UHGV virus genome: UHGV-0241516
Length of the DNA stretch: 31,376 nucleotides
From: a virus
Reading direction: 5' to 3' (one strand)
Position 1 is the first letter of the stretch, and every line of letters starts with the position of its first letter. The notes below the pieces were generated by a model that saw nothing but the letters and a program-made list of their open reading frames with translations, was not told the DNA's origin and did not search any database. The position numbers and the translations under genes are program-made. Shown here piece after piece: positions 28,241 to 31,376 of the stretch.

Positions 28241-29182
28241 TCACCCCCTGAATCCTGCCGGGATCTGGCTGTAGTCCACGTTGTCGTAACTGGATTTGAA
28301 GTACGGGTCTTCGCGTTTTTCGGTGTACGTGCTAACGGACGGTGATAAGCGCAGGGAAAGCTCATCCCATTTTTCCCGCAACTTCGACGGGCTGAGCACG
28401 TTACGGCACCAGAACGGATCGCGGCTGACGCGGCTGTACATCTCGCAGATTTGTTTGTGAGTACGACCATCCTGCACACACATCAGGCGAATTTCGTTTG
28501 CCCAGGCTGTCCAGTTCGGTTCTTTGGGACGAACCACCTCGCCGTCACATTCGGCGGCTTGCTCGTACAGGGCGATGATTTTTTTCCAGAGCCACTGTGC
28601 GCAGGTCAAATCATCCTGCGTTCCCCACTGGCGCTTTTTAGGGCTGAATACAACCGCATCAGGATGGCGAGTTAAAAAATCCTGTTCATCCGTCTGCGTG
28701 TCCGGTTGCGAAGCGTCCGGACGAGAAGGTTTTTTATCTGACGGATCATGTTTTGATTTTACTGACGGATCCCCGCCAGATTCTGACGGGTGAAAACCCG
28801 CTTTTTTGCCAGATTTCGACGCATCAAATTTTGACGGGTCAGATTTTGATGCGTCAGATTTTGACGGGTCAGAATCTGACAGTTGAGAAAATGCCGCTGC
28901 CTGAAGCTTCGCAACGTTAAGCTGATAAACATTCGACGCATTGCGGTTACCCTGGCGACGCGCCTTACGCGTTAACCAGCCTTCTGCTTCCAGCCGTGCG
29001 ATAGCCGTTCTGACGGTACTCATTCCCGCGCCAATCTGGCGGGCAATGGTTTCAATTGATGGCCAGCACACACCTTCGTCATTACTGAAATCAGCCAGGC
29101 GGGCCATAATTGCCACGCTGGATAATTTCATGCCTGATGCAGCGCAACCATCCCATACATAGCCGGTTAATTTAGTGCTCAT
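28241..29182 (-). CDS. Replication initiator, lambda O-like, with ori iterons inside the gene
   Basis: 313 aa. N-terminal HTH-like region, then a linker of repeated SDxSK pentapeptides encoded by the iteron array, then a C-terminal domain. ATG at 29182-29180. Confidence 0.7.
   Translation of the reverse strand: MSTKLTGYVWDGCAASGMKLSSVAIMARLADFSNDEGVCWPSIETIARQIGAGMSTVRTAIARLEAEGWLTRKARRQGNRNASNVYQLNVAKLQAAAFSQLSDSDPSKSDASKSDPSKFDASKSGKKAGFHPSESGGDPSVKSKHDPSDKKPSRPDASQPDTQTDEQDFLTRHPDAVVFSPKKRQWGTQDDLTCAQWLWKKIIALYEQAAECDGEVVRPKEPNWTAWANEIRLMCVQDGRTHKQICEMYSRVSRDPFWCRNVLSPSKLREKWDELSLRLSPSVSTYTEKREDPYFKSSYDNVDYSQIPAGFRG
28735..28885. repeat. Iteron array (putative ori): 4 tight 15-bp tandem repeats plus 3-4 degenerate copies
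   Basis: Read directly: 15-bp units at 28811-28870 (AGATTTCGACGCATC / AAATTTTGACGGGTC / AGATTTTGATGCGTC / AGATTTTGACGGGTC), degenerate copies at 28735-28792 and 28871-28885. Confidence 0.75.
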
Positions 29183-29191
29183 GACCGACCT

Positions 29192-29530
29192 CTATTTCCC
29201 TGAATTTACGACGAAACTGTTCGAGCGGGCTGAAGCACTCATGCTCATAACCTTCGCGGAGGTAGATAACCCGTTGTGTTTCCGGCTCCCAACGAATGAC
29301 TCTGACGGGCACTCCGTAGTGATCTTTGAACCAGCGGTTAACTTGTCGCAAAGGACTGTCTCCTTCTGCCGGTTGAAATCACCCACAGCCCACTCTGCAA
29401 AGCTGTGGGTTACAATTTCCCTGTCACCTGGTACATTTACTGCATAGCAATACTCCACCTTCGCTTTTCCACCCGGTACAGGAAGCGCAATCAGTTGCGA
29501 GCGACGGTAGTGTGTTGTTAAACTGTTCAT
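29192..29530 (-). CDS. Hypothetical protein (112 aa) coupled between CII-like and O-like genes
   Basis: ATG at 29530-29528 overlaps the upstream stop (ATGA). Ends 10 nt before the O-like start. No recognisable motif. Confidence 0.5.
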
Positions 29531-30090
29531 GCGTTAGTTTCTCCACAGTCACGACACGCCACGGCGCCCGGAGCTGCACACTCGCGGGCGTCATTACTTT
29601 CTGAAATGCAAAAAATTTTGTAGACCAGTGCTGCATGCTCCTGCAGCTTCGAAATTGAGAGGTACAGCTCGTCGTTAATTGCTGTCTTCTCATGCGGTTC
29701 CACTACACCGTCTTCAATTGCTGAACGAATCTGTTTTGAATAACTGCCGATCTGTTCAATGACTTCCAGCAGGCGCTGGTTAATATCGGCGTTGTCCACA
29801 TCCTCGACGTCAGGAAGAGACACAAAGACGCCATTTGCAGACTGCGCCACAGCGTCAGCAATGAAGTGAGTTCCACCAGCACGTTGCAAAATCATTGCCC
29901 ATCCCAGCGGGAAAATCTGATCGCCATCGGCACGAAGGCGGTTAAATAATGCGTTCTCTGTTACATCCAGCCAGTCAGCTGCTTCAGCGTAACCACCCGG
30001 CAACTTTGCGATAGTTTTTCTGACAGCTTTCACGTACCACTCAGGCTGTTTTTCTACTTTCCAGTGATGCTTACCCACGGTTAGCCTCAT
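29527..30090 (-). CDS. Early regulatory protein, CII-like (CP76 family) or YdaT-like; uncertain
   Basis: 187 aa, immediately downstream of the Cro-like gene. Family tentative. Start could be ATG 30090 or GTG 12 nt in. Confidence 0.45.
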
Positions 30091-30121
30091 CGTTCTGTGG
30101 TTAAAAATTGAAAGTGTTCTG

Positions 30122-30322
30122 CTAATCTTTCGGATAGATATCCGGTCTTAAGTCAGATTTCGTAATTGCACCTGACGTGCATTGCTCAAGTTTTTTAGCC
30201 AGCACAAAACTGGCTTTTTTATAGCCATTGAAAACCAGCCGTAAGTAGCCAGGTGTTGAGCCAACTTTTCCGGCCAACTCGCCCTGCTGTTCTTTGGTTA
30301 AAGAGTCCCAATACGCTTTCAT
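30122..30322 (-). CDS. Cro-like HTH repressor
   Basis: 66 aa (MKAYWDSLTKEQQGELAGKVGSTPGYLRLVFNGYKKASFVLAKKLEQ…). ATG at 30322-30320 with GGAGG upstream. The ORF track's 167-aa frame is a spurious upstream extension. Confidence 0.75.
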   Translation of the reverse strand: MKAYWDSLTKEQQGELAGKVGSTPGYLRLVFNGYKKASFVLAKKLEQCTSGAITKSDLRPDIYPKD

Positions 30323-30412
30323 ACAATATGTACCTCCGGTGTACATATTACATGATTGAAATGAACCTTCAAGATACTTGTACCTTAACGGTACAAGGGT
30401 TTTAATTTCGTT
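30323..30412. promoter_or_regulatory. Immunity switch: two palindromic operators and candidate divergent promoters
   Basis: Palindromes AATATGTAC-N7-GTACATATT (30325-30349) and CTTGTACC-N5-GGTACAAG (30377-30397). Candidate PR-like promoter on minus: -35 at plus 30367-30372, 16-bp spacer, -10 at plus 30345-30350. Candidate PRM-like on plus: TTGTAC (30378-30383), 17 bp, TTTAAT (30401-30406). Confidence 0.6.
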
Positions 30413-31087
30413 ATGAAAACAATCCATGACATCCGGCGGTCTAACGCCAGAAAACTGAGAGATGGTGTTGGCGGGAATTCTTCCTTTGCCACTATGATTG
30501 ATCGCGAGCCAACCCAGACCAGCAGGTTTATGGGAGATGGTGCTACTAAAAATATCGGTGACAGCATGGCACGACACATCGAAAAATGTTTCGACCTGCC
30601 TGTCGGATGGCTCGATCAAGAACACCAGACAACGAACATCACAAAAAAACCTGATGTTTCAATCACTAATAAACAAATCACATTAGTCCCTGTCATATCA
30701 TGGGTACAGGCCGGAGCATGGAAAGAAGTTGGATATTCTGAGGTTGATTTGAGCACAGCAGAAACGTATCCCTGCCCTGTACCCTGTGGGGAAATGACTT
30801 ATATCTTGCGGGTGATAGGTGATTCAATGATTGATGAGTACCGCCCGGGAGACATGATTTTTGTCGATCCTGAAGTACCTGCCTGCCACGGTGACGACGT
30901 TATTGCATTGATGCACGATACAGGCGAAACCACCTTCAAAAGGTTGATAGAAGATGGGACACAGCGTTATCTCAAAGCGTTAAACCCAAACTGGCCTGAG
31001 CCTTACATTAAGATCAACGGTAATTGCTCTATAATTGGTACAGTGATTTTCTCAGGAAAACCAAGAAGATACAAAATCAAAGCCTAA
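30413..31087 (+). CDS. CI-like repressor (HTH + S24 LexA-like autocleavage domain)
   Basis: 224 aa. ATG at 30413, TAA at 31085-31087. C-terminal half has the S24 peptidase signature (…VIGDSMIDEYRPGDMIFVDP…). Confidence 0.85.
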   Translation: MKTIHDIRRSNARKLRDGVGGNSSFATMIDREPTQTSRFMGDGATKNIGDSMARHIEKCFDLPVGWLDQEHQTTNITKKPDVSITNKQITLVPVISWVQAGAWKEVGYSEVDLSTAETYPCPVPCGEMTYILRVIGDSMIDEYRPGDMIFVDPEVPACHGDDVIALMHDTGETTFKRLIEDGTQRYLKALNPNWPEPYIKINGNCSIIGTVIFSGKPRRYKIKA

Positions 31088-31099
31088 TCAATGTTTATG

Positions 31100-31122
31100 A
31101 ACCTGCTTCGGCAGGTTTTTTT
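31100..31122 (+). terminator. Rho-independent terminator after the repressor gene
   Basis: AACCTGC-ttcg-GCAGGTT then TTTTTTT, 13 nt after the CI stop. Confidence 0.8.
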
Positions 31123-31126
31123 ATAC

Positions 31127-31154
31127 TTGACAATGTACCTTTGAGATACATAAT
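31127..31154 (+). promoter_or_regulatory. Near-consensus sigma70 promoter (PL-like) with operator-like TGTACC motifs
   Basis: TTGACA (31127-31132), 16-bp spacer, CATAAT (31149-31154). TGTACC at 31134-31139 and 31154-31159, the same hexamer found in both operator palindromes. Confidence 0.6.
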
Positions 31155-31321
31155 GTACCCAAGCGAAACAACGAACAGGCAGGACGCCCACGAAGTAGCC
31201 GCCTGGGGCATATGAAGTCCAGGATGATTCGTTAGCAACAAAAAAGCGCCCTACAGGACGCTTAGCTCTTTAACAATCTGGTCCCCATCAACAAGTAACT
31301 GATAACTTGAGGAGGTGTGAA

Positions 31322-31376
31322 ATGCACAAAACAGAACCCAAAATCGTCGCGCCTGGCTACACAGATGAGGAAATTT
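31322..31376 (+). CDS. 5' end of a plus-strand early gene (runs off the window)
   Basis: ATG at 31322 with GAGGAGG 6 nt upstream; MHKTEPKIVAPGYTDEEI… Only 18 codons visible. Confidence 0.45.
   Translation, partial: MHKTEPKIVAPGYTDEEI

Follow-up and report, generated by a model that had tools for sequence, protein, structure and literature searches.

The 90-bp spacer between the divergent cro and cI genes of this virus is, as judged from its sequence, the region that controls lysis and lysogeny in a common prophage family of E. coli and Shigella that includes e14, SfV and SfIV. We put at roughly 85% the probability that it serves a lambdoid prophage of the e14/SfV/SfIV type as its OR control region and follows the lambda plan in doing so. 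The window, by which we mean the whole 31,376-nt stretch of viral DNA that was analyzed, carried this spacer at 30323-30412 (exactly 90 bp in the ORF map), and from it an SOS-cleavable CI and a small Cro would be read divergently around three operators of the form (A)TGTACC-N5-GGTACA(T). From 30300 to 30430 the sequence was 100% identical to what lies between ymfT(croE) and ymfK(cohE) in prophage e14 of the K-12-lineage genome that was compared, so that the findings made in K-12 and described below concern the same sequence.

The genes on both sides of the spacer were those of a lambda-type switch, namely a divergent repressor with HTH and S24 domains and a small Cro-like HTH protein. The cro-like gene (30122..30322, minus strand, with its ATG at 30322..30320) was assigned by its ORF and by homology as the 66-aa homologue of ymfT/croE of e14, and its product shared 65 of 66 residues with K-12 YmfT. 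The protein gave weak Pfam matches to YdaS and HTH_3 and fell into PHROG 35, "transcriptional repressor"; the gene is labelled Cro in the GenBank records of SfIV and SfV. The cI gene (30413..31087, plus strand) encoded a repressor of 224 aa, assigned by its ORF and by identity as YmfK/CohE of e14, with 224 of 224 residues the same as in K-12. The C-terminal domain of CI was a Peptidase_S24 domain (E 1.5e-26) homologous to the C-terminal domain of lambda CI (E = 2e-9), and Ala100-Gly101, Ser138 and Lys176 aligned with A111-G112, S149 and K192 of lambda CI, which form the cleavage site and the catalytic dyad. By this alignment, CI carries an intact self-cleavage apparatus of the RecA-stimulated type. 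The next gene past cro encoded a CP76-type regulator of the phage 186 CII family (29527-30090, minus strand), which was assigned to PHROG 101, "CII-like transcriptional activator", and was not a lambda-type CII; a replication gene also lay downstream of cro.

The original prediction described two palindromes with a common TGTAC/GTACA core, the first of them bracketing the cro Shine-Dalgarno sequence, and both were read in the spacer as described. Palindrome 1, AATATGTAC-ctccggt-GTACATATT, occupied 30325-30349, and palindrome 2, CTTGTACC-ttaac-GGTACAAG, occupied 30377-30397. The cro Shine-Dalgarno sequence, recognized by sequence as GGAGG at 30337..30333 on the minus strand (CCTCC on the plus strand), 10 nt before the ATG, fell within the spacer of palindrome 1 and on its inner edge. 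The 31.4-kb window contained 16 perfect palindromes with an arm length of 8 bp or more and a loop of 3-9 nt, compared with 3.6 ± 2.0 in dinucleotide shuffles, and two perfect-palindrome loci of the window fell within the 90-bp cro/cI spacer. Both palindromes fitted one self-complementary frame, TGTACC-N5-GGTACA. Allowing at most one mismatch, this motif occurred three times in the 31.4-kb window against 0.02 expected, a count reached by none of 300 shuffles; allowing at most two mismatches, it occurred five times against 0.64 expected (again 0/300 shuffles reached that count), and all five matches fell in 30329-31170.

As in a lambda-type control region, three predicted symmetric operators in the spacer overlapped both divergent promoters. 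OR1, TGTACCtccggTGTACA (30329..30345), departed from the motif by one mismatch and lay within the extended perfect palindrome at 30325-30349; it covered the edge of the PR -10, the predicted +1 and the cro Shine-Dalgarno sequence. OR2, TGAACCttcaaGATACT (30362..30378), was degenerate, with three mismatches in the window, and was conserved in relatives, most of which had two mismatches (TGAACC-N5-GGTACT). It was centred at -43 of PRM, over the PR -35, always began 33 bp after OR1 and always abutted OR3. OR3, TGTACCttaacGGTACA (30379..30395, within the extended palindrome at 30377-30397), matched the motif with no mismatch here and in most relatives, and it overlapped the -35 and spacer of PRM (-34..-18), its own N5 being unconserved. 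Half-site tables compiled for each site suggested a 19-bp consensus, ATGTACC-N5-GGTACAT, on which OR3 loses both outer A/T positions. Its outer left base was T in 22/22 versions of the region and supplies the TTG of the PRM -35. The statement that there were only two palindromes, not three, thus held for perfect palindromes and failed for operators, of which there were three at OR and two at OL. A sixth copy of the motif inside cI (TGTACCctgtgGGGAAA, 30778-30794, two mismatches) was kept only in near-identical relatives; it was absent from diverged ones and was thus treated as a probable product of chance.

The sites were compared across relatives. A search with the cI protein yielded 24 genomic loci, 16 of which encoded a CI 73-88% identical to that of the window. 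These diverged loci came from Pseudocitrobacter, Klebsiella, Atlantibacter, Leclercia, Phytobacter, Enterobacter, Pantoea, Trabulsiella, Kluyvera, Limnobaculum, Rahnella, Edwardsiella and others, and a DNA search added two phages, Hafnia yong2 and Edwardsiella EPP-1, that were also diverged. With the close E. coli/Shigella phages included, the set comprised 22 distinct versions of the region, approximately 18 of them with a CI 73-88% identical, from several Enterobacterales genera. Start-to-start distances of 33 and 17 bp between OR1, OR2 and OR3 were invariant in all 22 versions. OR1 stood at the same offset in all relatives with its half-sites conserved, OL1 lay in the PL spacer throughout, and OL2 followed OL1 by 20 bp in most versions. 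The half-sites were at least 90% conserved and the N5 spacers were free, except for the cro Shine-Dalgarno sequence in OR1, whose CCTCC was invariant in the 22 versions, and the TTG of the PR -35 in OR2. The intergenic consensus read TGTACCTCC....TACATatTaCA.ga.t.aaATGAACC..CAAG.tACTTGTACC.....GGTACA...t.T.TAAT......ATG. Conserved half-sites with free spacers are the footprint expected of protein-binding DNA sites, and the pattern supported the proposal that the TGTAC palindromes behave as operators of a lambda-like divergent cI/cro switch. The probable recognition helices of CI (TQxSR) and Cro (GYLRLVF) were conserved alongside the operator sites.

The -10 of the maintenance promoter PRM, TTTAAT (30401..30406, plus strand), was the -10-like hexamer that had been predicted 6 nt before the cI start codon, and it was followed by ttcgtt (6 nt) and the ATG at 30413. 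Base 30413 was both the PRM +1, as mapped in K-12, and the A of the cI ATG. The PRM -35, TTGTAC (30378..30383, plus strand), was weak (3/6), with a 17-nt spacer, and its position was deduced from the -10 together with the mapped start; ACTTGTACC at this position was invariant in the 22 distinct versions. In relatives, a -10 of the nnTAAT type stood 6 nt before the ATG, or 7 nt in two Edwardsiella sequences, and the intervening bases varied freely. Reading of the sequence found no Shine-Dalgarno sequence at a usable distance before the cI ATG. The PRM of lambda has an equal -10-to-ATG geometry, TAGATT-taacgt-ATG.

This arrangement implied a leaderless cI mRNA, which had been suggested in the original prediction and for which a direct measurement exists. 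Transcription starts of MG1655 were mapped by differential RNA-seq by Romero et al. in 2014 (PMC4681348), who found only five leaderless mRNAs, three of them encoding the prophage regulators dicA, racR and ymfK. The ymfK start was placed at 1202156 (TSS RVS_(I)-1202156) with a leader length of 0 (Table S3, PMC4681348), and it was confirmed by RLM-RT-PCR (Fig. S1D, PMC4681348). The conserved -10-to-ATG geometry and the mapping of transcription initiation to the first base of the ymfK ATG in the identical K-12 sequence (PMC4681348) agreed, and the published K-12 experiment establishes that the cI mRNA is leaderless, as from a lambda-type maintenance promoter. The same TSS table, made from exponentially growing K-12, contained no start at the PR- or PL-equivalent positions (PMC4681348), consistent with both promoters being repressed in the lysogen.

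The promoter PR was recognized by sequence on the minus strand, with a -35 of TTGAAG (30372..30367), a 16-nt spacer and a -10 of TAATAT (30350..30345), giving a predicted start at approximately 30338-30340, inside OR1. It matched the sigma-70 consensus at 8/12 positions, under the 9/12 threshold of the promoter scan. The TTG of its -35 (CAA on the plus strand, 30370-72) was conserved although the rest of the OR2 spacer varied, and both this TTG and the TAnnnT of the -10 kept their columns in all relatives, where the -10 read TAATAT, CATAAT, TAGAAT or TATCCT. Other minus-strand promoters upstream of 30350, such as TTCAAT at 30360..30355, were rejected, as they lacked both an A at position 2 and a -35 and stood in an unconserved region.

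A second operator cluster was found on PL, beyond the far end of cI. The terminator scan listed an intrinsic terminator, GAACCTGCTTCGGCAGGTTT followed by a T run (31099..31125, plus strand), which was conserved in relatives. It was followed by a PL-like promoter, TTGACA-16-CATAAT (31127..31154, plus strand), which was found by scan, matched the consensus at 11/12 positions and was invariant in all 22 versions. OL1, TGTACCtttgaGATACA (31134..31150), lay in the PL spacer with one mismatch to the motif, and with none in 13/22 relatives. OL2, TGTACCcaagcGAAACA (31154..31170), began 20 bp past the start of OL1, had two mismatches and covered the +1 of PL and the edge of its -10; in most relatives its left half was conserved and its right half was weak. 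At PR and PL alike, the final two bases of the -10 were also the first two of a 19-bp operator (TAATATGTACA, CATAATGTACC).

The PL leader contained further features. A conserved RNA-like element at 31191-31231, approximately 30-70 nt past the start predicted at about 31161, comprised a stem of CCTGG (31202-06) and CCAGG (31219-23) and an outer pairing of CGAA (31191-94) with TTCG (31228-31). It was common to 11 relatives across genera, even where the flanks had diverged, with compensatory changes at three stem pairs (CCTGG/CCAGG, CCGG/CCGG, CCCCA/TGGGG). An Rfam scan of 29000-31376 at E <= 1 gave no match, this element included. A nut/put-like role in antitermination, or another leader function, is possible for the element; SfIV and SfV were reported to be without an N gene (PMC3851460). 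The first gene past PL was a small ORF of approximately 68 aa (MHKTEPKIVAPGYT...), which began with an ATG at 31323 and ran from 31323 to 31376, off the window end. The SfIV record is without the MHKTEPKIVAPGYT ORF and annotates overlapping minus-strand ORFs instead, and it may be mis-annotated at this gene. The sequence GCTCTTTAACAA, which we take to match the core of the rrn-type boxA exactly, stood in the PL leader at 31265-31276 (plus strand), 47 nt before the ATG of this first leftward ORF, and was the sole match in the window. It was directly preceded by a GC-rich hairpin at 31244-31263. The boxA-like GCTCTTTAACAA was also found in SfIV, in one E. coli locus and in Limnobaculum, and was absent from e14 and SfV; its presence suggests NusB/NusE-dependent antitermination in the leader variant that carries it.

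Placed together, these sites and promoters suggested how the switch would work. In a lysogen, PR and PL would be shut off by CI dimers, which would sit on OR1, OR2, OL1 and OL2. By filling OR1 and, probably cooperatively, the weak OR2, CI would block the -10/+1 and the -35 of PR, while PRM would fire from the A of the cI ATG to give the leaderless mRNA. OR2 spans -51..-35 of PRM, only 1 bp off the -50..-34 of lambda, which makes activation of PRM plausible; occupancy of OR2 by CI could activate this weak promoter from the position at which lambda CI contacts sigma region 4. OR3 overlaps the PRM -35, so that its occupant, either excess CI or Cro after induction, would shut PRM. Upon induction, RecA-stimulated self-cleavage of CI at Ala100-Gly101 would derepress PR and PL. 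This scheme is anchored in the sequence identity with e14, the leaderless ymfK start, the finding that PR and PL are silent in lysogens of K-12 and the conserved sites and promoter hexamers. From these we infer the occupancy of the sites by protein, the order of affinity, the cooperativity, the activation of PRM from OR2 and the start points of PR and PL.

Operator logic may depart from that of lambda within this general plan, and we regard such a departure as possible though distinctly the less likely course. OR3, over PRM, had the best 17-bp symmetry of all sites; a naive reading would have PRM shut first, yet PRM is active in K-12. The distance of 33 bp between OR1 and OR2 corresponds to about three helical turns and OR2 and OR3 stand 17 bp apart centre to centre, and since this spacing is unlike the 23-24 bp of lambda, lambda-style pairwise cooperativity cannot simply be assumed. 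The abutment of OR2 and OR3, the 33-bp distance from OR1 to OR2 and the location of the most symmetric site on the PRM -35 would allow OR2-OR3 rather than OR1-OR2 pairing, or a dominant negative autoregulation by CI. The symmetry of OR3 is that of its 17-bp core, its outer bases having been sacrificed to the TTG of PRM.

A simpler region, with two working operators only, would result if the site at 30362-78 were a by-product of promoter elements and of the OR3 flank. OR2 had 3/12 mismatches in the window, a level at which the window held 11 matches against 9.3 in shuffles, and the PR -35 (CAA) accounts for part of its conservation. Its left half, however, was ATGAACC in 21/22 distinct versions (GTGAACC in the remaining one), though its position within the PR spacer calls for no promoter element. 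The partner GGTAC(T) stood at exactly N5, most relatives had only two mismatches, and the offsets to OR1 and OR3 never varied. A repeat finder also grouped OR2 with OL1 and OL2 independently. These observations made a two-operator region quite unlikely and favored OR2 as a third, weak operator.

The original prediction also allowed palindrome 1 to act in the cro mRNA, as a hairpin that would sequester the ribosome-binding site. Such a hairpin would have the Shine-Dalgarno sequence in its loop, and the AUG in the stem of a 15-bp form, and would limit cro translation. The inverted repeat did extend to arms of 15 nt that were 87% complementary (30319-33 / 30341-55), and an 83-nt RNA, if started upstream at the PR -35, folded at -19.8 kcal/mol (z = -2.3) with a 15-bp stem covering the AUG. 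Variation of the right arm in relatives, from GTACA to ATACA, would keep G-U pairing possible. However, the 5' arm of the hairpin (30349..30341) coincided with the positionally conserved PR -10 (30350..30345) and its discriminator, so that the predicted start at approximately 30338-40 would fall in the loop and the RNA would have no 5' arm. An RNA beginning at 30340 was unstructured (-5.6 kcal/mol, z = +0.78), and the 33-nt core hairpin was unremarkable (-8.7 kcal/mol, with 24/200 shuffles folding as well). No conserved minus-strand promoter was found further upstream of PR, 30351-30360 being variable. The operator motif recurred at four other places without a ribosome-binding site, which fits a DNA site. 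Neither palindrome was explained by a known RNA family, as the Rfam scan of 29000-31376 (E <= 1) gave no match. With the PR start as predicted, the mRNA would not contain both arms, and the sequestering hairpin was set aside as very unlikely in favor of the DNA operator OR1.

Palindrome 2 could likewise be read as an intrinsic terminator or attenuator acting on rightward transcription into cI, such as that from an establishment promoter. It was listed by the terminator scan (stem 30377-97, tail GGTTTTAATT) and, as RNA, folded at -11.4 kcal/mol (z = -3.3). The T-rich tail, however, is the PRM -10 and was not conserved as a U run in relatives (e.g., AGAATGTCTAAT, CACTGTTTAAT), for which reason the candidate terminator was rejected. 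Its loop varied, its stem was the operator consensus common to four other sites, and termination right before cI would defeat establishment transcription. We therefore judged this function highly improbable and retained palindrome 2 as OR3.

The LexA box is CTGT-N8-ACAG. That host LexA rather than the phage repressor binds the sites, which would explain the LexA-dependent induction of e14 that a 2024 study ascribed to weak LexA boxes and found to depend on LexA cleavage (PMC11228462), is hardly credible, as TGT and ACA stand 11 nt apart in the operator motif against 8 nt in the LexA box, the flanking C and G are missing, the sites track the phage-specific CI/Cro pair across genera and CI itself has an intact self-cleavage apparatus. 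Nearly all e14 genes were strongly induced by DNA damage in that study, whose authors invoked weak LexA boxes (PMC11228462), and such induction is as expected of a self-cleaving CI. By combining RecA-stimulated cleavage of YmfK with operators on PR and PL, the arrangement described here offers what would be a simpler route to e14 induction than LexA boxes. This route would likewise depend on SOS-level RecA.

Any novelty implied for the region could not be upheld, as it is the ymfT-ymfK spacer of K-12 e14 base for base and is already annotated in the SfV record. The match to the K-12 copy indicated that the region is real and orderly, yet already known. Both the repressor and the intergenic region were 100% identical to those of K-12, placing the virus in the same immunity group as e14 and SfV, and PL, OL1 and OL2 were identical to those of K-12 e14 save for 2 bases. 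The "putative operator region" of the SfV GenBank record maps exactly to 30328-30396 of the window, that is, OR1 through OR3. SfV is also annotated with a terminator after cI, and the annotated terminator and "promoter" of the Ayreon record equal the cI terminator and PL. The immunity region and its leaderless repressor mRNA are thus already known, and the operator region was already marked in the SfV genome record. In the searchable literature, which was without Allison 2002 on SfV and Mehta 2004 on e14, no study was found in which YmfK or YmfT had been tested on these sites by binding, footprinting or mutation.

As a discovery, the region carries small weight, as an e14-type immunity region resides in E. 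coli K-12 itself. The value of our analysis lies in annotation, which now sets out the geometry of five operator sites and three promoters explicitly, with backing from cross-genus conservation. The same cI/cro module, annotated as ymfK (LexA family) and ymfT (YdaS family HTH), was present in 1324 of 5426 complete E. coli genomes (~24%), K-12 included, and it is also carried by Stx2c, Cdt-I and Shigella serotype-converting phages.

Among close relatives, the DNA of the region was 99% identical to Shigella phage SfIV and 95% identical to SfV, and over cro-cI-PL the window was 96-99% identical to the Shigella phages SfV and SfIV and the cdtI, Ayreon, 2H10 and Stx2c phages. In SfV and Ayreon, the right half of OR1 is TATACA instead of the TGTACA of the window, and there are small spacer changes too. 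The window belongs to a complete phage resembling SfIV and e14 is a remnant; their flanking genes differ, and the two sequences diverge approximately 90 nt past PL. Like ymfK, racR of Rac and dicA of Qin are prophage-repressor genes with leaderless mRNAs in K-12 (PMC4681348); their repressor families and operators differ.

The likeness to lambda lies in architecture. Both switches have divergent cro and cI genes, the latter encoding an HTH domain and a self-cleaving S24 domain; both have three 17-bp operators in approximately 90 bp, a -10 standing 6 nt before the ATG of a leaderless cI, and further operators on PL after cI. In both, the middle operator adjoins the PRM -35, centred at -43 here and at -42 in lambda. 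The components themselves differ. The operator sequence is unrelated, TGTACC-N5-GGTACA here against TATCACCGCCAGTGGTA in lambda, and the operators are spaced at 33 and 17 bp instead of 24 and 23 bp, so that OR2 and OR3 abut here. OR3 is centred at -26 rather than -19, and two OL sites were detected where lambda has three. By sequence, the Cro protein here is a YdaS-type HTH protein outside the lambda Cro fold family, and the CII-like protein belongs to the CP76 family of phage 186.
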